From the NCBI GenBank assembly GCA_036378095.1, contig DASUXC010000084.1, positions 19,805-83,804 on the forward strand: a stretch of DNA of 64,000 nucleotides. The letters run 5' to 3'. Below are positions 2,848 to 22,738 of this stretch, piece after piece. The notes under the pieces are model-generated. The model made no database searches, was not told the DNA's origin, and worked only from the letters and a program-made list of their open reading frames with translations. The first letter of the stretch is position 1. Each line of letters starts with the position of its first letter. A program made the translations under genes and the position numbers. This stretch comes from Gemmatimonadaceae bacterium. Lineage in GTDB: Bacteria > Gemmatimonadota > Gemmatimonadetes > Gemmatimonadales > Gemmatimonadaceae.

Positions 2848-3861
2848 CTATGCCGCGTCGCCCCCGGCGCTCCGCCGCTCGCTGTCCAGCATCGCCATCT
2901 GGTGCGCGTCGTACCGTTCGCCGGCTGCCGCTCCGGGGGGGACGGCCCGCTCGATGCGCTCGATGTCTTCCGGCTCGATGTAGACGTCGAGCGCGGCGAG
3001 CGCCTCGGCGAGTCCGGCGCGGCGGGTGGTGCCGATGAGCGGGACGATGTCGTTGCCGCGCGACAGCACCCAGGCGATGGCGAGCTGCGGGACGGTCAGC
3101 CCGCGCGCGGCGGCGAGCTCGCGCAGCGCCTCCACCAGACGAAGGTTGTGGCGGAGGTTCTCCCCCTGGAAGCGCGGATAGCGGGAGCGCGAGTCTCCGC
3201 GGCCGCCGAGACTCGCGGCGCGGTCGCTCAGCAGCCCGCGCGAGAGCACCCCGTAGGCGGTGAGCCCCACGCCCAGCTCGCGCAGCGTGGGGAGGATCTC
3301 CCGCTCGATCCCCCGGCTGAGGAGGGAATACTCGATCTGCAGGTCGCACACCGGGTGAACGGCGTGCGCGCGACGCACGGTGTCCGCGGAGGCCTCGGAG
3401 AGACCGATGTGGCGCACGTACCCCGCCTGCACCATCTCGGCGATCGCGCCCACGGTGTCCTCGATGGGCACCCGGGAGTCCACGCGGGCGGGGCGGTAGA
3501 TGTCCACGTAGTCGGTTCCGAGCCGCCGCAGCGTGTAGGCGAGCGACGTCTTCACCGCCTCGGGACGCCCGTCGAACCCGAGATACGTGCCGTCCGGGGC
3601 GCGTTGCGCTCCGAACTTGACGCTGAGCAGCACCCGCGCGCGGTCCGCTCCGCGCAGCGCCTCGCGCAGCAGCAGCTCGTTGTGCCCCATGCCGTAGAAG
3701 TCGCCGGTGTCGAGCAGGGTGATCCCCGCATCGAGCGCCGCGCGCACCGTGGCGATACTCTCGGCGTCGTCGCTCGCGCCGTACACACCCGACATCCCCA
3801 TGCAGCCGAGGCCGATCGCGGCCACGGTCGGACCAGCCTTCCCCAGTCGTCGAACCTTCAT
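2848..3861 (-). CDS. Aldo/keto reductase
   Basis: Inner ATG (MKVRRLGKAGPTVAAIGLGCMGMSGVYG...) of ORF 2848..3972. AKR hallmarks LDTGDFYGMGHNELLL, YVDIYRPARVD, HIGLSEAS, IPLIGTTR. Confidence 0.9.
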   Translation of the reverse strand: MKVRRLGKAGPTVAAIGLGCMGMSGVYGASDDAESIATVRAALDAGITLLDTGDFYGMGHNELLLREALRGADRARVLLSVKFGAQRAPDGTYLGFDGRPEAVKTSLAYTLRRLGTDYVDIYRPARVDSRVPIEDTVGAIAEMVQAGYVRHIGLSEASADTVRRAHAVHPVCDLQIEYSLLSRGIEREILPTLRELGVGLTAYGVLSRGLLSDRAASLGGRGDSRSRYPRFQGENLRHNLRLVEALRELAAARGLTVPQLAIAWVLSRGNDIVPLIGTTRRAGLAEALAALDVYIEPEDIERIERAVPPGAAAGERYDAHQMAMLDSERRSAGGDAA

Positions 3862-9922: not shown

Positions 9923-10082
9923 GGAATCTCGGGAATCGGGAAGCGGGAATCGGGAAGCGGGAATCGGCAAGCGAAGAGCACCGATGTGGATGGCAACGGG
10001 GCCGGCGACCGCCGGCCCCGTTGCGTTCCATGCTCGATCGCTTCCCGATTCCCGAGATTCCCTATTCCCGATTCCCGAGCTC
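9902..10082. repeat. Composite element E2 (GGGAATC family): perfect 44-bp inverted repeat around a 12-bp GC hairpin
   Basis: 9902..9945 (gagctcgggaatcgggaatagggaatctcgggaatcgggaagcg) is the exact reverse complement of 10039..10082. The left array continues with further GGGAA(T/G)C units to about 9972. Central hairpin AACGGGGCCGGC-gacc-GCCGGCCCCGTT at 9995..10022. Confidence 0.92.
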
Positions 10083-12359
10083 CTTCGCCATCTCGCTCAC
10101 GTGCGCCGCTTCGGCGTCGAGCACGGCGGCGATGCGGGCGATCTCGGTGTTCGCGGCCGTCCATTCCCCCTGCTCGATCGCCTCGCGCGCGCCGGGCATG
10201 GTCTTCACGCCGTAGCCCGTGTAGTAGCCCGGCGCGTAGAGCAGGTGGCGATACCACGGGCGGTTGGGGAGGCCACGATCCGACGTGAGCAGCCGCTCGC
10301 TGGCGAGGAGCTGCTCGTTGATCGACGCCAGCGACGCGCGGCGCTCACTGGAGCCCGCCGCCCGCGACGTGGTGTCGCTCTCCCCCGACCACGCGGCGTA
10401 CGCGCGCTCGAACCGGTCGGCGGCGTGCGCGAGCGAGTCGGCGGCGTTGTGCAGCGCGGCGAACTCGAGCCGCGGCGCCGGCGTCTCCCGCTCCGGCGCG
10501 CGCGTCGGGTCGCGGGGATCGCTCACCAGCGCGTACATGCCATCGTCGATGTCGCGGTTGCGCTGCTCGATCTCGCTCGCGCGCTTGTCGCGGAGCTGCT
10601 CCAGCTCGGTGACGTAGCGCTGCACGGTGGCCGCGAGGTTCGCGAAGCGGAACGGGAGCAGGTCGGCGTCGGCGAGACGCATGACGGCGGTGCCGACGGT
10701 CTGCGCGAGCGCGCGGCCGTAGACGAACGAGGTGTCGGCGAAGTGCGTGTACCAGTAGAAGTCGTCGTACACCGAGTGGTACACCCCGCCCCGGTCCTCG
10801 CCGCCGAAGCCGAGGTTGAGCGACGCGATGCCGAGGTGCTGCACGAAGGGCGTGTAGTCGGAGCCGGATCCGAGCGCGCCGATGGGAAGGTCGCCGCCAT
10901 CCTTCGGCGGCTCGCGGTGGTCATCGGAGGACCGGTGGACGCGGGCGCGCGCCTGGTCGCGCTTCCACACGGTGGCGCCGCTCTCCGGGTCGTCGATGTC
11001 GCGCGCCACGTCGTTGATGAAGCGCTCGAGCGTGTGCGAGCCCGACATCCCGAGGTATCCGCGGCCGTTCCCGTCCGTGTTCAGGTACGCGACCGCGTGC
11101 CGCGCCAGCTCCTCGGCGTGCGCCTCGGCCCACTCGGTCGAGCCGAGCAGCCCCGGCTCCTCGCCGTCCCACGCCGCGTAGACGATCGTGCGCTTCGGCC
11201 GCCAGCCGCTCTTGTACAGGGCGCCGAGCGCGCGCGCCTCCTCCAGCTCGGCCACGAGGCCCGAGATCGGGTCGGCGGCGCCGTTCACCCAGCCGTCGTG
11301 ATGGTTGCCGCGGACCACCCACTCGTCGGCCTCGCTCGTGCCCGGAAGCCTGGCGATCACGTCGTAGAGCGTCTTCAGGCTCCAGTCGGACTTCACGACG
11401 AGGTGCACGCGCGCGGGACCGCTCCCGCCATAGCGATACGTGATCGGCAGCCCGCCGCGCCAGCTCTCGGCCACCACGGGGCCGCCGAGCGCGGCGAGCA
11501 GCGGCTGCGCATCGCCGTACGAGATCGGGAGCACGGGGATCTTCGTGATCGTCTTCGCCTCGGCCACCGTCAGCCGCTTGGCGTCCTTCGTCGCGCCCAC
11601 GCCCGGCGTGAGCGGATCGCCGGGGTAGACCGGCATGTCCGCGACGCTGCCGCGCTGCACGCCATCGCGCGGGCGCATCGGCCCCGCGGGGAAGACGCTC
11701 CCCTCCGCCCAGCCATCATCGGCGGGGTCGGAGTAGATGAGGCACCCGACCGCGCCGTGCTCGGCGGCGACCTTGGGCTTGATGCCGCGCCACGAGCCGC
11801 CGTAGCGGGCGATGACGATCGCTCCCTTCACCGACACGCCGTGGCGCGCGAGCTCCTCGTAGTCGGCGGGGACGCCGTAGTTCACGTAGACGATCGGCGC
11901 GGTCACGTCGCCGTCGGCGGAGTAGGCGTTGTACGTGGGGAGCTGCTCGTCGTGCTGGCCGCTCGTGGGATCGGCGGCCACGGCCGGCTCGCGCAGCGCC
12001 GCGCGGAACGTCGTCGGGGCGACGAGCTCCACGACCCGCTGCTTCGGGGTGGGGAAGAGCACGTCGAAGCGCTCGATCCGCGCCTGCCAGCCGTACGACT
12101 CGAACTCCTTGCGCAGCCAGGCGGCGTTCGTGCTGTCGTACGGCGAGCCGACGTGGTGCGGACGCGCGGAGAGGGTTCGCATGGCCTCGCGCATGCGCGC
12201 GGGCTCGGGGATGGCGCGGAACTTCGTTTCCCAGCCGCGCTCGACGCGCGAGGACTCCGGCGTGAAGCCGCGCAGGGTCGAAGGATCGGTGCGGGTGGGC
12301 AGGATGGAGAGCCCGGCCAGCGCGAGCGCGAGCGAGAGGGAGTGAGCGGGAGTGTTCAT
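10062..12359 (-). CDS. M28 family metallopeptidase, glutamate carboxypeptidase II / transferrin-receptor-like
   Basis: Inner ATG (MNTPAHSLSLALALAGLSIL, signal peptide) of ORF 10062..12461. PA-domain block IVIARYGGSWRGIKPKVAAEHGAVGCLIYSDP, zinc-site blocks GNHHDGWVNGAADP and WDGEEPGLLGSTEWAE, and a C-terminal dimerisation-like region. Confidence 0.9.
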   Translation of the reverse strand: MNTPAHSLSLALALAGLSILPTRTDPSTLRGFTPESSRVERGWETKFRAIPEPARMREAMRTLSARPHHVGSPYDSTNAAWLRKEFESYGWQARIERFDVLFPTPKQRVVELVAPTTFRAALREPAVAADPTSGQHDEQLPTYNAYSADGDVTAPIVYVNYGVPADYEELARHGVSVKGAIVIARYGGSWRGIKPKVAAEHGAVGCLIYSDPADDGWAEGSVFPAGPMRPRDGVQRGSVADMPVYPGDPLTPGVGATKDAKRLTVAEAKTITKIPVLPISYGDAQPLLAALGGPVVAESWRGGLPITYRYGGSGPARVHLVVKSDWSLKTLYDVIARLPGTSEADEWVVRGNHHDGWVNGAADPISGLVAELEEARALGALYKSGWRPKRTIVYAAWDGEEPGLLGSTEWAEAHAEELARHAVAYLNTDGNGRGYLGMSGSHTLERFINDVARDIDDPESGATVWKRDQARARVHRSSDDHREPPKDGGDLPIGALGSGSDYTPFVQHLGIASLNLGFGGEDRGGVYHSVYDDFYWYTHFADTSFVYGRALAQTVGTAVMRLADADLLPFRFANLAATVQRYVTELEQLRDKRASEIEQRNRDIDDGMYALVSDPRDPTRAPERETPAPRLEFAALHNAADSLAHAADRFERAYAAWSGESDTTSRAAGSSERRASLASINEQLLASERLLTSDRGLPNRPWYRHLLYAPGYYTGYGVKTMPGAREAIEQGEWTAANTEIARIAAVLDAEAAHVSEMAKELGNRE

Positions 12360-12513
12360 GGGCGAACGCGTGGTTGAGTGGTGTCGCCAATCAACCGCTG
12401 GGGGCGGGGGCTCGCAACCGCGCGGCGGAGGCGTCGGGCGGGAGACTCGACCGGGGGGCACCCCGGGGGCGGCCCCGGAGCCACCTCGGGGCCACCCCCG
12501 GGTCGCCCCGGGG

Positions 12514-12846
12514 TCAGAGGTTCTCCTGGATGAAGCGCGGGCTCAGGTGGACGTCGAGCTGCACGAGCGGCCCGTCGCCGATGTTGCGGAAGCCGTGGAT
12601 CTCCCCGGCCTTGATGACGAGGATGTCGCCGGCGCCCGCCTCGAACTCCTCTCCGTTCACCACCCAGAGACCACGCCCTTCGCGCACGAACTGGACTTCA
12701 TCGTACGGGTGGCGGTGGGGTCCGGGTCCCTTCCCGGGGAGGGCGTTGAGGAGGAACACGGAGACGCCGACATCGCCGTTGTCGGCTCCGACGAACTGAT
12801 GCGAGCTGCCCACGAAGGGCAGGTCCTGCTGGCGGACGCGATACAT
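12514..12846 (-). CDS. Cupin domain protein
   Basis: ORF 12514..12876. I prefer ATG 12846 (MYRVRQQ...) because GAGGAG sits 9 nt upstream; 12876 is the alternative. Cupin motifs GPHRHPYDEVQFVREG and GEIHGFRN. Confidence 0.8.
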   Translation of the reverse strand: MYRVRQQDLPFVGSSHQFVGADNGDVGVSVFLLNALPGKGPGPHRHPYDEVQFVREGRGLWVVNGEEFEAGAGDILVIKAGEIHGFRNIGDGPLVQLDVHLSPRFIQENL

Positions 12847-12983
12847 CGTGTGGTGCTCCTCCCCGGTAGGGTCCATGCCTGCGCCGGCCGGCGGAGCGCC
12901 GGCCGGCTCCGGGAAGGATATCAGGCACGGCCGGCCGCGGACCAGTCGGGCCGGGGTTGCGCGCGCCGCCGGCGTTGGTCATA

Positions 12984-13013
12984 ATACCAAGTCTGCTTGG
13001 TATCGCTACCAAC
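12984..13013. promoter_or_regulatory. Two overlapping palindromes in the AT-richest part of a divergent promoter region (candidate operator)
   Basis: ATACCAAG-tctg-CTTGGTAT (12984..13003) overlaps TTGGTA-tcgc-TACCAA (12998..13013). It lies between the cupin gene (-) and the racemase gene (+). Confidence 0.35.
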
Positions 13014-13025
13014 GAGGTCGGGACG

Positions 13026-13724
13026 ATGCGGTACATCGGACTGCTTGGCGGCACGAGCTGGGCGTCGACCGTGGAATACTACGGGTTGATCAACCGGCGG
13101 ATCGCCGCGCGGATGGGCGGGCGGCACGCGGCGAAGATCCTGCTCCACAGCGTGGACGTCGCCGAGATCGACGGGCTGAGGTGCGCCGAGGCGTGGGAGG
13201 ACGCGGCCGCCATCCTCGCCGACGCGGCGGTGGGGCTCGAGCGCGGCGGCGCGGAGGCGATCGTCCTCTGCGCGAACACCATGCACCGCGTGGCCCCGGC
13301 CATCGAGACCGCGCTCGGCGTGCCGCTGCTGCACATCGTCGACCCCGCCGGACACGCGCTTCAGGCGGCGGGGATCCGGCGGGCCGCCCTGCTCGGGACC
13401 CGCTACACGATGGAGGAGCCCTTCTGGCGCGACCGGCTCGCCGACGGGTTCGGCGTCGAGCTGCGCGTGCCCGGCGCCGCGGATCGCCAGCTCATCCACC
13501 GCGTGATCCACGATGAGCTCTGCCACGACGAGTGCTACGAGCGGTCCCGCGCCGCGTGCGTGTCGATCATCGAGCAGATGGCCAGGGAGGGCGCGGAGGC
13601 GGTGATCCTCGGGTGCACCGAGATCGGGATCCTGATCCGGCAGTCGGATGTGACGCTGCCCCTGTTCGACACCACCACGCTGCACGCGGAGGCGGCCGCG
13701 TCGTTCGCGCTGGGCGCGGCGTAG
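13026..13724 (+). CDS. Aspartate/glutamate racemase family protein
   Basis: Inner ATG (MRYIGLLGGTSWASTVEYY) of ORF 12957..13724. The two catalytic-Cys blocks are IVLCANTMH and VILGCTEIG. Confidence 0.85.
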   Translation: MRYIGLLGGTSWASTVEYYGLINRRIAARMGGRHAAKILLHSVDVAEIDGLRCAEAWEDAAAILADAAVGLERGGAEAIVLCANTMHRVAPAIETALGVPLLHIVDPAGHALQAAGIRRAALLGTRYTMEEPFWRDRLADGFGVELRVPGAADRQLIHRVIHDELCHDECYERSRAACVSIIEQMAREGAEAVILGCTEIGILIRQSDVTLPLFDTTTLHAEAAASFALGAA

Positions 13725-13891: not shown

Positions 13892-14407
13892 CTACCTTCT
13901 CTCGCCACGGCGGGGAAAGAAGCTCCTCTCCGTGCGCTCGAGCACGTTCGCGATCTCCGCGGCCGCCGCGTCGTACGCGTCGATGACGGCACGGCCCCGG
14001 GTCGTGAGCGCGGCGCCTCCGCCCGCGGGTCCGCCGGCACGACGCGCCACCAGCGTGTGCTCGAGCAGCGCCTCGGCGCGCTGGAGCCAGGCGATCGCGT
14101 GACGGTAGCCGAGCCCGAGCTCGCGCGCGGCGGCGCGCAGCGAGCCGTGCTCGTCGATCAACCGGAGCAGGCGGATGAAGCGCGGGCCGATCACCTTGTC
14201 GCCGTTCTCGGTGAGCAGGAGCACCGCGCGGGCATGGACGCGCCCGCGGCGCCACGACACGCCACCCGCGCAGGCGCGCGGCGCGGCGGACCGGGCACGG
14301 CGCGGGCGCCGCTCGGCGCGTGGGGAGGCTCGAGACGAGGTCTTCCGCATGTCCCTCCAGGGCGTGGGCGAGCGCGCCGGCCGTCGGCCGGGCGCGGCGT
14401 CATTCAT
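13892..14407 (-). CDS. ModE-N-terminal-like winged-helix transcriptional regulator (start uncertain)
   Basis: ORF 13892..14407. Core IGPRFIRLLRLIDEHGSLRAAARELGLGYRHAIAWLQRAEALLEHTLVARRAGGPAGGGAALTTRGRAVIDAY matches the ModE/LysR-type HTH domain. The N-terminal 50 aa are Arg-rich, so ATG 14350 or GTG 14260 may be the real start. Confidence 0.65.
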   Translation of the reverse strand: MNDAAPGRRPARSPTPWRDMRKTSSRASPRAERRPRRARSAAPRACAGGVSWRRGRVHARAVLLLTENGDKVIGPRFIRLLRLIDEHGSLRAAARELGLGYRHAIAWLQRAEALLEHTLVARRAGGPAGGGAALTTRGRAVIDAYDAAAAEIANVLERTERSFFPRRGERR

Positions 14408-14529
14408 GGAAGCTGCAACGGGCCGGGCGCCGCGTCGAGAGCACCCGCCGCCGCGACCTTGCGCGCGAAGCGGGGCGCCGCATCTTCTCGCTGTTCCCCG
14501 GAGGGTAACAACGATCGCCCGGAGCCCGC

Positions 14530-16641
14530 GTGTCGCGTCTCGCGTTTCGTCCCCGCCTCCGCCTTCGTTCGCGCGCGCGCCGTATCGCGCTCACGGCACT
14601 CGCCGCGCTGCCGGTCGGCGCGATCGCCTCCGCGCGCGCCGCGGCCCAGGACACCGCCGCGGCACCGTACCCGCTCGGCGAGGTCGTGGTCTCGGCGCGG
14701 GCCCCGGTGTCCGAGGCGAGCGGCACGGTGCGCATGGTCACGGCGGCGGACATCCGCGCATCCGGCGCGCGCACGCTCGACGAAGCCATCGCGCTCCTCC
14801 CCGGCGTCCACGTGCGCACCGGCGGCGACGGCGTGCCGCGCGTGGACGTGCGCGGCTTCCGTCCCCGCCACGTGCTCCTCCTGCTCGACGGCGTGCCCCT
14901 CAACTCCACGTACGATGGGCAGTTCGATCCCACCCTCGTGCCGGTCGAGGAGATCGCGTACATCAAGGTGCAGCCCGGCGCGTCGTCCGTTCTGTACGGC
15001 GCGGGGGCGCTCGGCGGCGCGATCGACATCGTGACGCGCACCGGGAGCGGGCCGGCGCACGGCGAGATCGGAGGTGAGGCGCGCGAGCGCGATGGCACCC
15101 TCGCGCGCGCCAGCATCGGCGGGGGGAACGCGCGCATCGGCGGCTTCGCCGCGGCGAGCGGCATGCGCACCGACGGCTACCTCGCGCCACGCCTCTCGCC
15201 GAGCGTCGCCGGCTCGGGGAGCGGGGACGCGCTCCGCGCCAACACCGATCGCAAGCGAGTGAACGCGTTCGGCAACGCGAAGGCGCGCATCGGCGAACGG
15301 CTCACGCTCGGTCTGGTGCTCTCCGGCGTGCACGGCGCGTACGGGATCCCGACCACGGTGATCGGCGACGCGAGCGATCCGTTCGCCACGCGAGCGACGT
15401 ACGAGCGCGTTCCCTCCCTCGACCAGCGCTCGGCGCAGCTCGCCGCATCGTGGGCGCCGCGCGGCGCGATCTCGGTGCGATCGTGGGCGTACGTCAATCA
15501 GTACGACGAGGACCACGACCGGTTCGACGACAGCAGCTTCGCATCGATGTCCGATTCCACCGTGCGCGGCACCTTTCACCAGTCGAGCCGCTCGCGCGTG
15601 AGCGGCGTGGGGGCGCAGGTCGCCCTGGAGGCGGCCCGGTGGGGGCGCCTCACGGTGGGCGCGAGCGCGGAGCGGGATTCGTGGCGGTCCGACCTGCACG
15701 TGCGGGACGTGCCGGTGGGGAGTGGCGGTGGCGGCGGTGGCGGCGGTGGCGGCGGTGGCGGTGGCGGAGGCGGAGGCGGCGCGACGTGGTACCGCTTCCG
15801 CGACGTGTCCGACGCGCGGCACCTCGATCACGCGGGACTCGCCGTCGAGTACGAGGTCCGGCCGGTGGCGCCGGTGGGCGTGGTCGTCGGCGTCGCGCAC
15901 GACTGGCTGGCGAAGGACTCGGCCGGGCACGACGATGCGGGGGCGTACACCGCCGGCGCCTACGTCGACGTGGCACGGGGGACGCGCGTGCGCGCCTCGG
16001 CGGGGCGGAAGGTCCGCTTCCCGGCGATCCGGCAGCTCTACGATCCCACCGCGGGGAACCCGGCGCTGCACGCCGAGCGCGCCGACGAGTACGAGGCGGG
16101 GGTGGAGCAGTCGCTCCCCGCGCGGTCGCTGCTGTCGGTGACGGCGTTCGTGACGAACGTGCGCGGCTACATCGAGCGCCCGTCGCCATCGGAGCCGTTC
16201 GCCAATGCCACGGCCTACCGCTTCTCGGGCGTGGAGGTGCTGGCCGAGACGCGGGCGATCGAGCGCGTGCTCCTGCGCGCGGGGTGGTCGTTCCTCGACA
16301 CCCAGGATCGCTCGCCCGGCGCCTCGCGCGACGCGTTGCAGTACGAGCCGCGGCATCGCATCACGCTCGAGGGGCGATGGGCACTTCCGATCGGGCTCGA
16401 CGTGGCGGGCTCGGTGATGCGCGTGACGGGGCAGGTCTTCTACTCGCGCGCGGCGCCCGTTCGGCAGGCGTCGCTCCCCGACTACACGCTGCTCGGCGTG
16501 CGGCTCGGGCAGCGCGTGCTGCGCGGCGCGGTCGACGTGTACGCCGGCGCCGACAACCTGCTCGACGAGGCGTACGAGGACGAGTACGGCTACCCGCGTC
16601 CCGGGCGCACGCTGTACGCCGGCGCTACCTTACGGTGGTGA
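14530..16641 (+). CDS. TonB-dependent outer-membrane receptor
   Basis: GTG start with GGAG 5 nt upstream. Signal peptide, plug block VRMVTAADIRASGARTLDEAIALLPGVHV...VDVRGF...LLLDGVPLN, and C-terminal barrel ending TLYAGATLRW. Contains an unusual 19-Gly tract. Confidence 0.9.
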   Translation: MSRLAFRPRLRLRSRARRIALTALAALPVGAIASARAAAQDTAAAPYPLGEVVVSARAPVSEASGTVRMVTAADIRASGARTLDEAIALLPGVHVRTGGDGVPRVDVRGFRPRHVLLLLDGVPLNSTYDGQFDPTLVPVEEIAYIKVQPGASSVLYGAGALGGAIDIVTRTGSGPAHGEIGGEARERDGTLARASIGGGNARIGGFAAASGMRTDGYLAPRLSPSVAGSGSGDALRANTDRKRVNAFGNAKARIGERLTLGLVLSGVHGAYGIPTTVIGDASDPFATRATYERVPSLDQRSAQLAASWAPRGAISVRSWAYVNQYDEDHDRFDDSSFASMSDSTVRGTFHQSSRSRVSGVGAQVALEAARWGRLTVGASAERDSWRSDLHVRDVPVGSGGGGGGGGGGGGGGGGGGGATWYRFRDVSDARHLDHAGLAVEYEVRPVAPVGVVVGVAHDWLAKDSAGHDDAGAYTAGAYVDVARGTRVRASAGRKVRFPAIRQLYDPTAGNPALHAERADEYEAGVEQSLPARSLLSVTAFVTNVRGYIERPSPSEPFANATAYRFSGVEVLAETRAIERVLLRAGWSFLDTQDRSPGASRDALQYEPRHRITLEGRWALPIGLDVAGSVMRVTGQVFYSRAAPVRQASLPDYTLLGVRLGQRVLRGAVDVYAGADNLLDEAYEDEYGYPRPGRTLYAGATLRW
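15721..15780 (+). repeat. Triplet simple-sequence repeat (GGY/GGA)n encoding Ser + 19 Gly inside the TonB receptor
   Basis: agtggcggtggcggcggtggcggcggtggcggcggtggcggtggcggaggcggaggcggc. Protein reads VGSGGGGGGGGGGGGGGGGGGGATWY. Confidence 0.9.
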
Positions 16642-16690
16642 CGATCACGCGAGCGGCGTCCGGTCGAGGACGACGGGGAGGGGTGTCGAC

Positions 16691-17326
16691 GTGAGAGAAG
16701 CGATGCTGTCGCTGCACGAGGAGCTGCGGGCCACGTCCCGCCTTCCGGTGCTCGCCGGTGCGCGCGGGGGGAGCGCGGTACGGCCCCTGGAGCTGGCGAC
16801 GCTCCTTCTCGCCGGCGTGGCCGCGTCGCTGCTGACGAACCTCGTGCGGCTGCGGCTCGGGATCCCGGGGAGCAGCATCGTGCTCACCGTCTTCCCGATC
16901 GCGCTCGGCTTCGCGCTCGTGCCGCGTCGGTGGGCGGGCTCGGTGATGGCCGGAGGGGCGCTGGCCACCTCGCTCGCGCTCTGGCTCGCCGGCGCGCGGT
17001 TGGACGGCGTGGGAGCGCAGACGAGCCTGCTCCTCACCGGGCCCCTGCTCGACGTGGCGTTCGGCTGGGGCGGGGGCGCGGGAGGGTGGCGGCTGTACGC
17101 CGCCTTCGTCGCCGCCGGCGGGGCGAGCAACGCGGCGGCGTTCCTCGTGCGTGGCGCCGCCAGGCTGGCCGGGGTCGGCGAACATGGCGGAGCGCGATCG
17201 TTCGCGCTGTGGTGGCCGCGCGCCATCGGGAGCTACGCCGCCGCGGGGATCGTGGCGGGGCTCATCGGCGCGCTCGCCTGGTTCCACTTCCGCGCGCGCG
17301 AGGCCGTCGCGCGCGACGGGCGATGA
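16691..17326 (+). CDS. Polytopic inner-membrane protein, unknown family
   Basis: 211-aa ORF (GTG 16691 or ATG 16703) with about 5-6 hydrophobic segments (LELATLLLAGVAASLLTNLV, IVLTVFPIALGFALV, SVMAGGALATSLALWLAG, SYAAAGIVAGLIGALAWF). Its stop overlaps the next start (ATGA). Confidence 0.6.
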   Translation: MREAMLSLHEELRATSRLPVLAGARGGSAVRPLELATLLLAGVAASLLTNLVRLRLGIPGSSIVLTVFPIALGFALVPRRWAGSVMAGGALATSLALWLAGARLDGVGAQTSLLLTGPLLDVAFGWGGGAGGWRLYAAFVAAGGASNAAAFLVRGAARLAGVGEHGGARSFALWWPRAIGSYAAAGIVAGLIGALAWFHFRAREAVARDGR

Positions 17327-18024
17327 TACACATCGGGATCGACGACACCGACACGCTCGACACGCCGGGGACGAACCAGCTCGCCCGCCGCCTCGCGGCG
17401 GCGCTCCCCGCCGGCTTCGCGTTCGTCGCCGCGCTTCGCCACCAGCTCCTCTTCGATCCCCGCATCCCGTACACGAGCAAGAACGGGAGCGCATCGCTCC
17501 TCGTCGCCGCCGACCCGGGGCACGACGCGAGCGAGCTCGTGCCGGTACTGCGCCGCGAGATGCGCGCGTGGTACGTGCCGGGGAGCGATCCGGGGCTGTG
17601 CGTGGCCGGCGAGGTTCCGCTCGCGGTGACCGCGTTCGCGCGCCGCTGCCAGGCGGAGCCGGTGCGTCAGGCGGAGGCACGCGCGCTGGCCGCCCGGCAC
17701 GGGATCCATCTCGAGGGGCTCGGTGGCACCGAGGACGGCGTGATCGGCGCGCTCGCGGCGGTGGGGCTCCTCGCCTGGGGGAGCGACGGTCGCGTGGTGC
17801 ACCTCGCCGGCTGGCCCTGGCCCGACCCCTTCGCCGGCGAGCAGCCCGTGCGCGCGGTGCTCGCGCGCGGCGTCGGCGCGATACGCGTCCTCTCGTCCGG
17901 CGAGATGGTCCGCGACGGCGTGGTCGATGTGGGCAAGCACCTGCGCCCGGCCTGGCGAGACGGGAGCGCGGTGCTGTTCGTGGAAGGGGGGAACGGCCGA
18001 TGGAGGGCGGTCAAGACGAGCTGA
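17323..18024 (+). CDS. Stand-alone protein resembling the N-terminal kinase domain (TCKD) of archaeal TiaS (tRNA-Ile2 agmatidine synthetase)
   Basis: Inner ATG of ORF 16930..18024, overlapping the upstream stop. MIHIGIDDTDTLDTPGTNQLAR...LRHQLLFDPRIPYTSKNGSASLLV resembles, from my memory of TiaS, IGIDDTDS..GMCTTY...RLIRLNPxIPYKTRGNGAVSFLV. No OB or zinc-ribbon region follows. Confidence 0.55.
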   Translation: MIHIGIDDTDTLDTPGTNQLARRLAAALPAGFAFVAALRHQLLFDPRIPYTSKNGSASLLVAADPGHDASELVPVLRREMRAWYVPGSDPGLCVAGEVPLAVTAFARRCQAEPVRQAEARALAARHGIHLEGLGGTEDGVIGALAAVGLLAWGSDGRVVHLAGWPWPDPFAGEQPVRAVLARGVGAIRVLSSGEMVRDGVVDVGKHLRPAWRDGSAVLFVEGGNGRWRAVKTS

Positions 18025-18228
18025 CCGCCCGATTCCCGTCGTGCGGCAGCCGTCCGCGTCGGCGACTCCCCGACACGCGCGGTGTGGATTCGGACCCGTC
18101 CGCCGGCTGAAATACGGACGAAAAATCAGCCCCCACCCGACGGAAGCAGGGTTGCGCCCGGCCTAATGTCCCGGTGCGACGATCGCCGACTTCGCGGCGA
18201 CGCCGGACACCTCATCGCCGAGCCCACC

Positions 18229-18843
18229 ATGCGCGTCAGGCTTCTCGCTCTCCTCGCCCTGTGCGGCGTCGTGACGCCCGCGTTGCGCTCGCAGAGCACC
18301 CCCGTCCCGGTCGAGCCGGAGAGCCGCATCTGGTTCGACGGCACCGCCACGCTGCACGGGTTCACGTGCACCGCCGGCGAGTTCGCCGCCGAAGTCCAGC
18401 CGGCGGCGGCGCACCAGGACAGCACGAGCCGACGCCCCGTTCAGCGCCGTGGCACCCTCACCATCCCCGTGCGCCGGCTCGAGTGCGGCGACGGGAAGAT
18501 GGAGAAGAGCATGCGCAAGGCGCTGCGAGCGGACGAGAACCCGGACATCCGCTTCGAGCTCGTCGAGTACGACCTCGCGCGCCAGAGCGACGACAGCGCG
18601 ACCGTGCGCGCCGACGGCACCCTCGAGTTGGCGGGGGAGACGCGCTCGGTCTCGCTCGTCGTGGGCGCGAAGCGCCGCGCGGATGGCGCCGTACGCCTGA
18701 CGGGGAGCCGCGCGCTGTACATGACCGACTTCGGCATCACGCCGCCGACGGGGCTCCTCGGCCTCATCAAGGCGGGCAATCGCATCGTGGTTCGCTTCGA
18801 CGTGGTGGTCCCGGCCGAGCGGCTGGCCACCGCGAGCAGATGA
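18229..18843 (+). CDS. YceI-like periplasmic protein
   Basis: Inner ATG (MRVRLLALLALCGVV, signal peptide) of ORF 18082..18843. WFDGTATLHGFTCTAGEF...GTLTIPVRRLECGDGKMEKSMRKALRADENPDIRFEL...GTLELAGETRSVSL. Paralog of 29701..30348. Confidence 0.78.
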   Translation: MRVRLLALLALCGVVTPALRSQSTPVPVEPESRIWFDGTATLHGFTCTAGEFAAEVQPAAAHQDSTSRRPVQRRGTLTIPVRRLECGDGKMEKSMRKALRADENPDIRFELVEYDLARQSDDSATVRADGTLELAGETRSVSLVVGAKRRADGAVRLTGSRALYMTDFGITPPTGLLGLIKAGNRIVVRFDVVVPAERLATASR

Positions 18844-18938
18844 GCTTCACTCACCAGGGGATGGCACCCATGCCCGTACGCGTCAGTGCCGCTCCGTACG
18901 CCCTCCGACCCTCAAACATCGCATCGGAGCATCGTCAT

Positions 18939-20246
18939 ATGAAACGCCGTCTCGCCCTCGCGCTCACCGCGCTCGTACTGCCGGCCACCGCCTCGCGCCT
19001 GGCCGCGCAAGACGGATCCGTGCTGCGCGCGCCGATCCAGCACATCCGTCCGGCCGATCAGAGCGGGATCAACGTCTTCGAGTCGCCGAAGACCGACTCC
19101 ACCCCGTTCAACGGCCTGGCGCTCTCGGTCGGCGCCGCGTTCACGCAGCAGTTCCAGGGACTCAAGCACGCCAACGCGGCGTCGCCGAACATGGTGGATG
19201 GCAAGGACGCGAACAAGTTGATCGACATCGGGAAGGGATTCAACAACGCGACCGCGAACCTGATGCTGAACGCCCAGCTCGCGAAGGGGATCCGCGTCCA
19301 GCTCACCAGCTACCTCTCGGCGCGCCACCATCAGGAGACGTGGGTGAAGGATGGCTACCTGCTCGTCGATGCGTCGCCGCTCGACGTCAAGGTGCTGAAC
19401 GACATCATGAAGGTCGTGACCCTCAAGGTGGGGCACTTCGAGATCAACTACGGCGACCAGCACTTCCGCCGCTCGGACAACGGGAACGCGATGTACAACC
19501 CGTTCGTCGGCAACCTGATCATGGATGCCTTCACGACGGAGGTGGGGGGCGAGGTGTACGTTCGCACCGGTCCCTTCCTGGCCATGGGCGGGATCACCGG
19601 CGGCGAGGTGCGCGGCAGCGTGCAGAACCCGAGCAAGCGCGGGCCGTCGTACCTGGCGAAGCTGGGCTTCGACAAGCAGATGGACCCGGCGCTGCGCGTC
19701 CGCCTCACGGGGTCGCTGTACAAGAACGGGAAGTCGAACAGCAACACGCTGTACAGCGGCGACCGCGCCGGCTCGCGCTACTACGACGTGATGGAGAACA
19801 TCACGTCCACCGAGACCGCGCAGGCCTGGTCGGGTGAGATCCAGCCCGGCTTCAAGAACAAGGTGACGGCGATGGTGCTCAACCCCTTCATCAAGTACCA
19901 CGGGCTCGAGCTGTTCGGCAACATCGAGCGCGCCAAGGGTCGCGCCTCCACGGAGGCGGCGGATCGCACCTGGCACCAGTACGCGGGCGACGCGGTGTAC
20001 CGCTTCGGGCCGTCGGAGAAGTTCTACGTGGGCGGCCGCTACAACACGGCCAACGGCTGGCTCGCGGGGATCACCGACGAGGTGCGCGTGAACCGCGTGC
20101 AGGCGGGCGGCGGCTGGTTCGTGACGCGCAACGTGCTCGCCAAGGCGGAGTACGTGGACCAGCGCTACAAGGACTTCCCGGTCACCGACATCCGGCACGA
20201 CGGTCGCTTCCACGGCTTCATGGTGGAGGGCGTGGTCGGCTTCTGA
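18939..20246 (+). CDS. Outer-membrane beta-barrel porin-like protein
   Basis: Inner ATG (MKRRLALALTALVLPATASRLAAQ, signal peptide) of ORF 18174..20246. Alternating beta-strand pattern, ending ...FHGFMVEGVVGF with a terminal Phe. Confidence 0.75.
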   Translation: MKRRLALALTALVLPATASRLAAQDGSVLRAPIQHIRPADQSGINVFESPKTDSTPFNGLALSVGAAFTQQFQGLKHANAASPNMVDGKDANKLIDIGKGFNNATANLMLNAQLAKGIRVQLTSYLSARHHQETWVKDGYLLVDASPLDVKVLNDIMKVVTLKVGHFEINYGDQHFRRSDNGNAMYNPFVGNLIMDAFTTEVGGEVYVRTGPFLAMGGITGGEVRGSVQNPSKRGPSYLAKLGFDKQMDPALRVRLTGSLYKNGKSNSNTLYSGDRAGSRYYDVMENITSTETAQAWSGEIQPGFKNKVTAMVLNPFIKYHGLELFGNIERAKGRASTEAADRTWHQYAGDAVYRFGPSEKFYVGGRYNTANGWLAGITDEVRVNRVQAGGGWFVTRNVLAKAEYVDQRYKDFPVTDIRHDGRFHGFMVEGVVGF

Positions 20247-20274
20247 TCCGGTGGTGGTCGACCACGAGCGGGAC

Positions 20275-20308
20275 GCCACGGGCGGCTCTCCGGAGAGCCG
20301 CCCGTGGC
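20275..20308 (+). terminator. Strong hairpin after the porin gene
   Basis: GCCACGGGCGGCTCT-ccgg-AGAGCCGCCCGTGGC, a 15-bp perfect stem 29 nt after the stop. No clear U-tract. Confidence 0.55.
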
Positions 20309-20415
20309 GCATCCATACCCGACGGTTGGGCACGACACGTGCACTTCTCCGCGGACGACATGGAAGCCGCCGGCCATCGGTCCGCGGCACGATCTCTCAT
20401 TGGGAGACACCACGC

Positions 20416-21300
20416 ATGAGAAGCGCACCTCTCGTCTCCGGGCGCATGGTCGCGCTCGTCTTCGCCGGCGCCGTTGCCGCGGCCTGTGGCAGCGACTCCT
20501 CGACACAACCCAAGACCGTCGCCAGCGTGACCGTGAGTCCCGCGAAGGACACCGTCCAGACGGGCGAGACGGCGCAGTTCACTGCCGAGCTCAAGGACGC
20601 CAACGGCAACGTGCTCACGGGGCAGTCGGTGACGTGGACCTCGAGCGACACGGATGCGGCCCCCATCTCCGCGTCCGGCGCGGTGGCGGCGATCCTCCCC
20701 GGGACGTCGACGATCACCGCCACCGCCGGGGGCGTCTCGAACACCGCCGATCTCACCATCCTCGCCGGTGCCGCGCACCAGCTCTCCGAGGGCGAGCGGA
20801 TCGGCGACTCCACCTTCGCCCCCGGCGACGGCCCCAACGGCGGGCAGGGCGACCCGGTGGGCAGCGTGCCGTGCGCCGCCGATGCGGGGCAGCCGGTGGA
20901 ACACCGGCACTCGCACCTCACGCTCATCGCCAACGGGCAGCAGATCGCGATCCCGCTCGCCATCGGCGTGATGAACCCCATCTACAACGACACCAACGAG
21001 GCGTTCGCCGGCACGTGCTTCTACTGGCTGCACACGCACGACCAGACGGGGATCATCCACGTGGAGCCGTTCGAGGGGGGACACACGTTCACGCTCGGTG
21101 ACTTCTTCGACATCTGGGGGCAGCCGCTGACGGCGAGCGGTGTAGCGGGGTACAGCGGGAGCGTGGCGGCGTACGTGGACGGGAAGCGCTTCACCGGCGA
21201 TCCGCGCTCGATCGTGCTCGCCGATCACCAGCAGATCACGCTCGAGGTGGGAGCTCCCCTCGTGGCGCCGCCGATCTACACCTGGCCCAATGGCTATTAA
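20416..21300 (+). CDS. Lipoprotein with Big_2 (bacterial Ig-like) domain and a His-rich C-terminal domain of unknown function
   Basis: Inner ATG of ORF 20251..21300. Lipobox LVFAGAVAAAC-GS. Big_2 block VASVTVSPAKDTVQTGETAQFTAELKDANGNVLTGQSVTWTSSD. C-terminal EHRHSHLTLIANGQQIAIP...CFYWLHTHDQTGIIHVE...FTLGDFFDIWGQPL. The 3' end overlaps the kaiC start by 11 nt. Confidence 0.75.
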   Translation: MRSAPLVSGRMVALVFAGAVAAACGSDSSTQPKTVASVTVSPAKDTVQTGETAQFTAELKDANGNVLTGQSVTWTSSDTDAAPISASGAVAAILPGTSTITATAGGVSNTADLTILAGAAHQLSEGERIGDSTFAPGDGPNGGQGDPVGSVPCAADAGQPVEHRHSHLTLIANGQQIAIPLAIGVMNPIYNDTNEAFAGTCFYWLHTHDQTGIIHVEPFEGGHTFTLGDFFDIWGQPLTASGVAGYSGSVAAYVDGKRFTGDPRSIVLADHQQITLEVGAPLVAPPIYTWPNGY

Positions 21301-22738
21301 GGCACCAACCGGCATCCGCGGTCTCGACGAGATCACCGGCGGTGGGCTGCCGGCCGGGCGCCCCACGCTGGTGTGCGGCGGTCCGGGCTGCGGGAAGACG
21401 CTCCTGGCGATGGAGTTTCTCGTGCGCGGCGCCACGGATGCCGGCGAGCCCGGAGTGTTCGTCGCGTTCGAGGAGACGGTGGCCGACCTCGCGGCGGACG
21501 TCGCGTCGCTCGGCTTCGACCTCGACCAGCTCATTGCCCAGGGGAAGCTGCGCGTCGACCACGTGCGCGTGCTGCGCTCCGAGATCGACGAGGCCGGAGA
21601 CTACGACCTGGAGGGGCTGTTCGTCCGCCTCGGCCACGCGATCGACAGCATCGGCGCGAAGCGCGTGGTGCTCGACACGATCGAGACGCTCTTCTCCGCC
21701 TTCTCCAACGAGGCCATCCTGCGCGCCGAGCTGCGCCGGCTGTTCGGATGGCTCAAGGAGCGCGGCGTGACCGCGGTGATCACCGCCGAGCGCGGAGAGG
21801 GCACGCTCACCCGGCAAGGGCTGGAGGAGTACGTCTCCGACTGCGTGATCCTGCTCGACCACCGCGTGAACGGGCAGGTGAGCACCCGGCGCCTTCGCGT
21901 GGTGAAGTACCGCGGCTCCTCGCACGGCACGAACGAGTTCCCGTTCATCATCGAGGACGGCGGGCTGACGGTGCTCCCGATCACCTCGGTCGGCCTCTCG
22001 TACGGTGTGAGCGAGGAGCGCATCTCGACGGGGGTGGCCGGGCTGGATGACATGCTCGGCGGCCTCGGCTTCTACCGGGGGAGCAGCATCCTCGTCTCCG
22101 GCAGCGCCGGCACGGGAAAGTCGCTGCTGGCGGCGCACTTCGTGGACGCCGCCTGCCGGCGCGGCGAGGGCGCGCTGTACTGCGCGTTCGAGGAATCGCC
22201 GGCGCAGATCATGCGCAACGCCCGCGCGACGGGGGTGAGGCTGGCGGAGCACGTGGAGCGCGGCCTGCTTCGATTCCACGCGGTGCGCCCCACCATGTAC
22301 GGGCTCGAGGCGCATCTGGCCCGGATCGTGAAGGACATCGACATGTTCCGGCCGCGCGTCGTGGTGCTCGATCCCCTCACGGCGTTCCTCGGCGCCGCCA
22401 TGCAGCCCGATGTGCTCGCGATGGCGACCCGTCTCATCGACTCGCTCAAGCTCGTCGGGATCACGGCGATGATGACGAGTCTCAACGGCCGTGACGAGAC
22501 GGTCCTGGGGGAGAGCGACGTCGGCGTCTCATCGCTGGTGGACTCGTGGATCTGCCTCCGCGATGTCGAGCGGCACGGTGAGCGCCACCGCGGCCTCTAC
22601 GTTCTCAAGTCCAGGGGCATGGCGCACTCCAACCGGATTCGCGAGTTTCTCATCTCGAGCCAGGGGATCCGACTGGGCGAACCCAACCCGGGTGACGAGC
22701 GGGAAGGGTGGCAAGTGGAGTTCATCGAACGGCAATGA
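21290..22738 (+). CDS. kaiC: Circadian clock protein KaiC homolog (double RecA-like ATPase)
   Basis: 482-aa [24 protein letters not shown]. Walker A GGPGCGKT (CI) and GSAGTGKS (CII). Catalytic EE pairs VAFEE and CAFEE. C-terminal [44 protein letters not shown]. Confidence 0.92.

Follow-up and report, generated by a model that had tools for sequence, protein, structure and literature searches.

Molybdenum (Mo) and tungsten (W) enzymes drive nitrate reduction, formate/CO2 conversion and methanogenesis, and the accepted view is that the two metals enter by ModABC, TupABC or WtpABC and are then inserted by a MoeA-centred pathway. More generally, the pairing of a carrier with a kinase, or 'metabolic trapping', is a plausible way to directional uptake. 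Here, we analyze a four-gene cluster in a 64-kb stretch of DNA (hereafter the window; G+C ~72%) from a Gemmatimonadaceae bacterium (contig DASUXC010000084.1), whose nearest relatives are Gemmatimonadaceae metagenome-assembled genomes (MAGs). The cluster comprises a ModE-like regulator, a divergently oriented TonB-dependent receptor (TBDR), a six-helix membrane protein that is probably a divergent S component of an energy-coupling factor (ECF) transporter, and a protein with the kinase-domain fold (TCKD) of TiaS, a fold known so far only from archaeal tRNA modification. This cluster could well be an Mo/W-responsive acquisition module in which the TCKD enzyme would use ATP on an imported Mo/W species, a reading that we hold with about even confidence.

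The TCKD protein and its membrane partner

On sequence evidence alone, the likeness of the TCKD protein (N-terminus MIHIGIDDTD) to TiaS is marginal. The Pfam family TiaS_TCKD (PF22641) matches residues 4-64 only, at 25.2 bits against a gathering score of 27, and many close homologs carry a precomputed PF22641 match; the NCBIfam model for TiaS (NF040849) matches at E 1.8e-9 with 36.7 bits against a cutoff of 600. Searching PDB sequences with phmmer retrieves the 252-aa Pyrococcus protein 3u02 (E 1e-5) and TiaS (E about 2e-4), and a profile built from 59 family members does so at E 2.5e-12 and 4e-7, respectively, always over profile positions 1-151. An exact-sequence look-up of the window protein gave no record. 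Methanogenesis marker protein 11 (TIGR03280; E 2.7e-10) was rejected as an identity: the score of 39.9 bits lies below the cutoff of 255.8, the match is partial (model positions 135-283 only, the C-terminal half), and the TCKD-like domain alone is held in common.

Structural evidence for the TCKD fold is clear. The AlphaFold2 (AF2) model of the protein (pLDDT 94, pTM 0.91) retrieves TiaS structures first in Foldseek (5xob/3amt/4rvz; E 3e-8, 152 columns, root-mean-square deviation (rmsd) 2.4 Å), followed by 3u02 (E 7e-7, up to 210 aligned columns) and then by pterin pyrophosphokinases (HPPK; probability 0.7-0.96, E 0.02-0.1). Moreover, residues D7 D8 T9 D10, T17, R39 H40 Q41, D89 P90 G91 and D155 G156 R157 are invariant in the 59 bacterial and archaeal members, of which D7 D8 T9 D10 and T17 align to D8 D9 T10 D11 and Thr18 of TiaS. 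In the account of Terasaka et al. 2011 given in PMC11938285, TiaS is a dual protein and RNA kinase that autophosphorylates Thr18. Because the DDTD motif and the Thr18 equivalent are invariant, the window protein very probably keeps TCKD-type ATP chemistry without being TiaS, and conservation of the active site points to ATP-dependent phosphorylation or adenylylation. The family has invariant signatures of its own (RHQ, GSDPG, GLGGTEDG and DGR), and neither Pfam, NCBIfam, the PDB profile search nor the AF2 model reveals an OB or Zn-ribbon domain in the protein. Its last ~75 aa (residues 157-233) are conserved and beta-rich, forming one beta domain after the TCKD in the model; the family profile finds no sequence match for this part in TiaS or any other PDB entry, and an equivalence to the domain that comes after the TCKD in 3amt and 3u02 is hinted at by Foldseek alignments reaching 194-210 columns on these structures.

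A role in modifying tRNA or another RNA, as in TiaS, with the transport neighbors functionally meaningless, is extremely unlikely. It would be in keeping with the only characterized TCKD, which acts on tRNA C34 (PDB 3amt), and with the JGI label 'TiaS' on some members, but a protein of 233 aa instead of about 420 aa, with no tRNA-holding OB/Zn-ribbon, a score far below the NF040849 cutoff and a C-terminal part that TiaS does not match in sequence, is poorly equipped for it. Furthermore, bacteria and archaea alike keep the gene in an operon with the S component, down to the overlap of stop and start codons, and in bacteria the equivalent tRNA modification is the work of TilS (PMC11938285).

The membrane protein has no Pfam or NCBIfam match, no BLAST-level similarity to ECF S components and, with a profile of the window-type proteins, no sequence match in the PDB. 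Comparison of that profile by hhalign with one built from the S components of operons that combine TCKD and ECF genes, however, gives 91.7% probability (E 7.6e-7, 159 columns), and the invariant motifs of the membrane protein, PG(H/S)xI and VPRR, recur in the second profile as PG(H/S) and VPRR. A member of this second group, whose proteins measure 181-194 aa in Spirochaetota and Anaerolineae, matches PF09819, the family of YkoE-type S components, at E 5e-6 and above the gathering score, the same match being 'weak' for the S component of the archaeal locus L085. The AF2 model of the membrane protein (pLDDT 85) shows six long transmembrane helices, and its highest-probability Foldseek matches in the PDB are S components, namely 5edl (YkoE; 0.98), RibU 5kbw_B (0.96; TM-scores 0.54/0.64) and ThiT (0.66). 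Because of the profile-profile link to PF09819 proteins of ECF operons and the top fold matches to YkoE and RibU, the membrane protein is probably a divergent ECF S component. Genes for EcfA or EcfT were found neither in the window nor in the ±6 kb covered at the loci from Gemmatimonadota and Planctomycetota; in these two phyla, the S component appears to be solitary or served by a module encoded elsewhere in the genome.

A first-pass annotation, made from the letters of the window, had proposed all four open reading frames (ORFs), and each was found where it had been placed. They are real genes and not chance ORFs, judging by the more than 4,000 homologs of the TCKD protein (E <= 1e-3) and the 184 homologs of the membrane protein. 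The membrane-protein ORF starts 49 nt past the TBDR stop, and its own stop overlaps the TCKD start as ATGA, by which the TCKD gene is translationally coupled to the S-component gene, as that annotation had said. Its view of the last gene as a TiaS-like kinase domain without OB or zinc-ribbon parts held, and the TiaS TCKD fold was the only characterized family to which the profile and fold searches assigned it. The description as a stand-alone kinase-domain-like protein needs amending for the additional C-terminal domain, and the supposedly uncharacterized protein of 5-6 transmembrane segments indeed has six helices in its model, but is S-component-like and not an orphan.

Neighborhoods in bacteria and archaea

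The TCKD family forms 391 clusters (50% identity) at E <= 1e-30 in a scan of 1.84 billion representatives, and members of the top 150 clusters are nearly all 230-260 aa long. Source databases call them 'hypothetical', 'TiaS' (some, JGI) or 'ABC transporter substrate-binding protein' (many, NCBI RefSeq/GenBank; for example P0093, P0120, P0121 and P0122), and the latter two names fit neither the predicted fold nor the domain content of the family. Neighborhoods were compared in the window and 80 loci from GTDB species representatives (numbered with the prefix L), in which ORFs were called mechanically and conserved clusters served as the filter. Many of these loci are truncated contigs, making co-occurrence counts lower bounds, and the closely related Methanomicrobiales loci were counted as one lineage. 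Two distant TCKD representatives sit on short, uninformative contigs.

An S-component partner accompanies the TCKD gene in 40 of 45 bacterial loci: in all 15 from Gemmatimonadota, 12 of 15 from Planctomycetota (the remainder being truncated contigs), the single Geothrix locus, and all six each from Spirochaetota and Anaerolineae, with none in the two from Chloroflexia. The pair is kept in five bacterial phyla and some archaea, and 18 of 28 pairs share a 4-nt (A/G)TGA overlap of stop and start. A TBDR ortholog lies directly upstream in 11 of 15 Gemmatimonadota loci; a TBDR is directly downstream in Geothrix (1/1) and nearby in four of six Spirochaetota loci, and none was seen in Planctomycetota (0/15), Anaerolineae (0/6) or Chloroflexia (0/2). 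By this comparison, the cluster belongs to a broader family that spans bacteria and archaea and is no Gemmatimonadota oddity.

In several lineages, the pair is embedded in a complete ECF operon. Spirochaetota and Anaerolineae share the gapless order TCKD, fused EcfAA', CbiQ-type EcfT, small signal-anchored protein and S component, while Ca. Argoarchaeum (L082) has TCKD, a 283-aa anchored extracytoplasmic protein, S component (hhalign 99.6%, E 5e-25), EcfAA' and EcfT, an order found also in L085. The anchored protein, which has no Pfam match (L082 8704-9555, L085 8707-9513, bacterial L028 8839-9348), is longer in archaea (268-283 aa) than in bacteria (about 160-185 aa), and may be a substrate-capture subunit. 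Elsewhere, DUF1559/N-methyl proteins adjoin the pair in Planctomycetota, and a MotA/TolQ/ExbB-family gene with a DUF2149 gene lies directly upstream of the TCKD gene in Methanobacterium, preceded by a DUF11 surface protein (L043 4980-5986; also L063, L065 and L072). A Gemmatimonadales MAG (L041; 4998-5951, 5545-6808) has a glyoxalase/VOC-like gene inserted between the S-component and TCKD genes, and its TCKD frame is split over two frames, implying a frameshift or an assembly error. As read from gene content, the constant theme of these neighborhoods is energy-coupled uptake, and the importer beside the TCKD enzyme alternates between an S component with or without ECF genes, TupABC, or both.

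A second theme is Mo/W. Regulators beside the planctomycete genes fuse HTH_1 to a ModA-type SBP_bac_11 domain (E 3e-39), and those in Chloroflexia and a Pirellulales MAG join GntR to PBP_like (PF12727), a domain also found fused to a MoeA paralog (PMC10102598). The TCKD gene has an AA_kinase-family gene on one side and a TupA/TupB/WtpC-like ABC transporter on the other in 20-24 of 27 Methanomicrobiales loci and in both Chloroflexia loci. The AA_kinase gene, which directly precedes the TCKD gene in Methanoculleus and Chloroflexia, encodes a full-length homolog of molybdenum storage protein (MoSto) subunit beta, matching 2ogx_B at E 4e-64 as opposed to 1e-10 for UMP kinases. A small conserved protein (77-100 aa, no Pfam match) always goes with the MoSto-homolog/TCKD pair in these two groups (L053 4771-5004 (-) and 25 other loci, cluster c7; L039 5370-5666 (-)), and Chloroflexia additionally have a DUF134 helix-turn-helix (HTH) protein. 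In Spirochaetota, TupABC-like genes either diverge from the TCKD/ECF operon or directly precede it, and an 8-kb stretch of L085 combines such an operon with an AA_kinase gene, a TupA-like binding protein and an MFS_MOT1 molybdate transporter. In Methanobacterium, the operon for formylmethanofuran dehydrogenase (fwd/fmd), an Mo- or W-dependent enzyme, adjoins the TCKD gene, convergent and downstream. Finally, lipoproteins with Oxidored_molyb-like domains stand directly upstream in Anaerolineae and Spirochaetota. Three Spirochaetota loci (L028 118-5744, L032 204-5742, L035 40-5689) carry a larger upstream set with a TBDR, periplasmic proteins bearing two Oxidored_molyb-like domains, a CcsA-like protein of the cytochrome-c-assembly family, a 288-aa membrane protein and a metallophosphoesterase; in L028, one Oxidored_molyb-like protein is fused to a TP_methylase domain.

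Altogether, each of the eight lineage groups sampled, from seven phyla, has Mo/W regulators, transporters, the storage-protein homolog or Mo/W enzymes among the neighbors. With a few Mo/W uptake genes per genome and a 12-gene window, chance would place one beside about 1% of loci, and because the association is nonetheless met in all eight groups, this recurrence of gene content is not chance. The conjecture of the first-pass annotation that the cargo is an oxyanion or metal-linked compound, drawn from the ModE-like gene, is thereby strongly reinforced from independent contexts in other lineages. The gene pair is also conserved next to TonB receptors in other genomes, where a lack of such conservation would have refuted that annotation. 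Its suggestion of agmatine or another polyamine as substrate found no support, with polyamine genes near none of the 87 loci examined.

The cargo of the same architecture might instead be organic and Mo/W-linked (a pterin, a molybdopterin-derived compound or an Mo/W-chelating metallophore), which the TCKD enzyme would (pyro)phosphorylate for trapping in a Pnu/NadR-like manner. We consider this rather unlikely, although several observations are in line with it. Organic cofactors are the classical cargo of both S components and TBDRs, and the window's S component is nearest the YkoE (thiamine-precursor) type; the lipoproteins beside the operon in Anaerolineae and Spirochaetota are extracytoplasmic and resemble molybdenum cofactor (Moco) domains; HPPK are the next-best structural neighbors of the TCKD model; and solitary S components without Ecf genes fit facilitated diffusion followed by trapping. 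However, the HPPK similarity is weak and may merely reflect a shared alpha/beta sandwich, compounds of Moco type are highly unstable outside the cell, and Gemmatimonadota are for the most part aerobic. Moreover, the methanogen and Chloroflexia loci pair the enzyme with TupABC and the MoSto homolog and have no S component, which points to the oxyanion itself. Because of these TupABC/MoSto contexts, we lean somewhat towards the oxyanion as cargo over a pterin or chelate.

Receptor, regulator and local setting

The TBDR (signal peptide; Plug PF07715, E 3e-24; barrel PF00593, E 2e-23) yields no substrate assignment from the PDB or NCBIfam, where its matches are generic and PDB receptors are matched by the plug only. 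Its best NCBIfam match is of BtuB type, at 130 bits against a cutoff of 599.7; identity as a vitamin B12 receptor was rejected on this sub-cutoff score, the plug-only PDB matches and the lack of any Rfam element in the window. The receptor contains 19 consecutive glycines, and orthologs in L001, L004, L005, L006 and L007 have 18-24 at the same position, L002 has seven, and L009, L011, L015 and L041 have none; such a conserved poly-glycine loop in Gemmatimonadota receptors is unusual.

We find import of a corrinoid, another tetrapyrrole or Co/Ni, with coincidental Mo/W neighbors, very unlikely. In its favor, the B12 receptor family as best match is joined by ECF parts that match the 'CbiQ' and 'ABC_cobalt' Pfam families, by the TP_methylase and CcsA-like genes of the Spirochaetota clusters, by cobW near the operon in L085, and by the need of metal ECF systems, too, for extra extracytoplasmic subunits as seen here. 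Nevertheless, the BtuB score is far from its threshold, and the Pfam names are historical, PF09819 being the YkoE family and CbiQ a generic EcfT. An Rfam scan of the entire window found no cobalamin riboswitch or other RNA element, which argues against B12- or TPP-type (thiamine pyrophosphate) control, and the recurrence of Mo/W genes in every lineage group far exceeds the per-locus expectation.

The regulator (171 aa) matches the N-terminal domain of the ModE repressor (TIGR00637; E 1.1e-21, 76.7 bits; NCBIfam cutoff 98.5), PF00126 HTH_1 (E 5e-7, above the gathering score) and PRK10676 (E 2e-12). Pfam and NCBIfam profiles find no TOBE/Mop domain in it, and the ORF stops ~13 residues after the HTH match. 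Since homology begins only near residue 56-70, the true start is probably internal to the ORF, downstream of the first ATG. Short homologous HTH genes flank the cluster in L001, L002, L005, L006 and L020 at varying positions: divergent upstream in the window, L001 and L005, co-directional downstream in L002 and L006, and upstream in one planctomycete (L020). The intergenic region (14408-14529), the presumed operator, has no sigma-70 consensus, and TBDR upstream regions compared across loci have no palindrome or other motif common to all. Two candidate operators were noted, a block CGCTGTTCCCCGGAGGGTAACAACGA just ahead of the receptor start in the window (14493-14520) and L001, and a perfect palindrome CGATAGGCATT-ACA-AATGCCTATCG ~40 nt upstream of the TBDR start in L004 (near 3230-3260), which are too little to claim a ModE box.

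Table 1. Coordinates of the cluster and its flanking genes in the window
Feature	Position	Strand	Remarks
ModE-N-terminal-like winged-helix regulator without Mop/TOBE domains	13892..14407	-	TIGR00637, PF00126; divergent from transport operon
Divergent intergenic region, presumed promoter/operator	14408..14529	.	Contains block CGCTGTTCCCCGGAGGGTAACAACGA, common to window and L001
TonB-dependent outer-membrane receptor (TBDR): signal peptide, Plug, 22-strand-type barrel	14530..16641	+	PF07715, PF00593
19-residue poly-glycine tract within TBDR barrel region (aa 399-417)	15724..15780	+	
Six-helix inner-membrane protein, probable divergent ECF S component (YkoE/PF09819-like)	16691..17326	+	Profile-profile link and AF2/Foldseek
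Stand-alone TCKD-fold (TiaS kinase-domain-like) protein, predicted cytoplasmic, 233 aa	17323..18024	+	Sequence profiles and AF2/Foldseek
M28/PA/TFR_dimer peptidase	10062-12461	-	Flank
Cupin	12514-12876	-	Flank
Asp/Glu racemase	12957-13724	+	Flank
YceI-like protein	18082-18843	+	Flank
437-aa secreted protein without Pfam match	18933-20246	+	Flank
Big_2 protein	20251-21300	+	Flank
KaiC-like double ATPase	21290-22738	+	Flank

The flanking genes (10062-13724 and 18082-22738) appear unrelated to the cluster. A tblastn search of the 64-kb window found no EcfA, EcfT, TupA, TupB, MosB or Mo-sensor regulators.

A regulator without any sensing domain raises the question of whether the TCKD-like protein is a nucleotide-dependent accessory: a gate or energizer of the S component, a metallochaperone, or a metal-sensing partner of the Mop-less ModE-like protein. 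Being translationally coupled, the protein may form a stoichiometric complex with the carrier, and an invariant equivalent of the threonine that TiaS autophosphorylates, as related in PMC11938285, would suit a switch. These roles nevertheless strike us as quite unlikely. The enzyme persists in loci with a full EcfAA'T energizer and beside sensor-bearing regulators (HTH with SBP_bac_11, GntR with PBP_like), where neither energizer nor sensor is needed, and the entire acidic DDTD catalytic motif is invariant, beyond the threonine alone. Because the enzyme is kept both with a full ECF ATPase and with TupABC as the only adjacent importer, action on the cargo is more likely than energizing of transport.

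The proposed pathway and described systems

In the Mo/W acquisition module that we propose, the ModE-type regulator would control the divergent operon, so that Mo/W status would turn the module on or off. The TBDR would carry a scarce Mo/W species, as oxyanion or in complexed form, over the outer membrane and concentrate it in a periplasmic pool, from which the carrier of ECF-S-component type would move it over the inner membrane; this carrier is solitary here and has its own EcfAA'T ATPase module in other lineages. The cytoplasmic TCKD enzyme, made in fixed ratio with the carrier and probably docked at or near it, would then spend ATP on the arriving cargo by phosphoryl or adenylyl transfer, or by an ATP-driven hand-over to MoSto-like or MoeA-type acceptors for storage or cofactor insertion. 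The outcome would be vectorial uptake feeding Mo/W cofactor synthesis or storage. The Mo/W nature of the cargo, the activity of the TCKD protein on it and the kind of chemistry are all inferred from gene context, conservation and predicted structure. The pathway in its entirety, a new acquisition route in which molybdate, tungstate or an Mo/W complex would come in through a TBDR and an ECF-type S component and be activated or trapped with ATP by the TCKD enzyme, is a tentative proposal that we consider possible but doubtful.

Several points weigh against this pathway. ECF transporters are known for vitamins and Ni/Co cations, not for oxyanions; to our knowledge, TBDRs for Mo/W are not established; and a stable phosphorylated or adenylylated molybdate would be chemically unusual. 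The Foldseek E-values of the S-component matches (0.2-0.7) are non-significant alone, despite the high probabilities, and the ModE-like match is sub-cutoff in a regulator without molybdate-binding Mop domains. Neither transporters nor Mo/W genes were found in the contexts of L081, L083 and L084 (Methanocella and two metagenomic methanogen contigs), and the TP_methylase and CcsA-like genes in Spirochaetota clusters hint at tetrapyrroles. All functional claims made here rest on comparative genomics and predicted structures.

What the comparison brings to light is a widespread, unstudied family that sits between Mo/W importers, storage-protein homologs and regulators in bacteria and archaea, a position that suggests a missing step in the capture, discrimination or hand-over of Mo/W. 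If true, the proposal would add an enzymatic step to Mo/W metabolism common to soil bacteria and methanogens, the first ECF-type and the first TonB-dependent route for Mo/W, and a link to MoSto-like storage. It would extend the TiaS kinase fold to a non-RNA role and ECF-type carriers beyond vitamins and Ni/Co, and would correct the propagated database name 'ABC transporter substrate-binding protein'. Cultured carriers, among them Geothrix limicola, Maioricimonas sp. and species of Methanoculleus and Methanobacterium, make it directly testable.

Among described proteins, TiaS, the archaeal tRNA(Ile2) 2-agmatinylcytidine synthetase, is like the window protein over the N-terminal ~150 residues of the TCKD kinase fold, where both have GIDDTD, the Thr18 position, an (I/V)PY(T/K) segment, an (N/D)PG motif and a G(V/L)IGALA helix. 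It differs in its ferredoxin-like, OB-fold and Zn-ribbon parts, which bind tRNA(Ile2), whereas the window family has the RHQ, GSDPG, GLGGTEDG and DGR signatures with a different C-terminal beta domain, occurs in bacteria, and stands next to transporters or Mo/W genes (with the Methanocella exceptions) and never in a tRNA context among the loci sampled. The Pyrococcus furiosus structural-genomics protein 3u02 is likewise a short stand-alone TCKD and the best sequence match among solved structures, yet at ~21-26% identity, with sequence similarity confined to the TCKD, it belongs to a different subfamily.

The group I ECF transporters YkoEDC(F) (thiamine precursors), CbiMNQO and NikMNQO(K/L) (Co/Ni) offer the nearest likeness for the carrier. 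The S component is of YkoE/PF09819 type, and several lineages have a dedicated fused EcfAA', an EcfT (CbiQ) and, in the manner of metal ECF systems, a small extracytoplasmic subunit held by a signal anchor. In contrast, the S component stands without Ecf genes nearby in the window and at every Gemmatimonadota and Planctomycetota locus, its constant partner is a TCKD enzyme, found in no described ECF system, and the regulators and neighbors are of Mo/W and not thiamine or Co/Ni type, with no riboswitch. As for ModABC/TupABC/WtpABC, ModE and MoSto, the window cluster has a ModE-type HTH regulator and the TCKD family elsewhere lies inside strings of tupABC and MoSto-homolog genes, but the window has no ModA/TupA-type binding protein or ABC genes, and described pathways of Mo/W uptake, storage and cofactor synthesis list no TCKD protein (PMC13197769, PMC10102598, PMC11734730). 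We found no paper on the TCKD family, nor one linking TiaS-like proteins or ECF transporters to Mo/W, in agreement with the earlier remark that no characterized bacterial system of this composition is known.

By analogy, the cluster also resembles PnuC/NadR, PnuT/thiamine kinase and solitary BioY, in which a small carrier lacking an ATPase of its own is encoded together with an ATP-using enzyme of the cytoplasm; the enzyme fold and the probable kind of cargo differ, and trapping here is hypothetical. The combination and its implied function are undescribed, and the parts are known. Because their defining features are not found, the proteins are not TiaS, methanogenesis marker protein 11, BtuB or full-length ModE; instead, the receptor belongs to the TBDR superfamily, the enzyme to the TCKD fold family at the level of fold, and the carrier, probably and as a divergent member, to the ECF S components.

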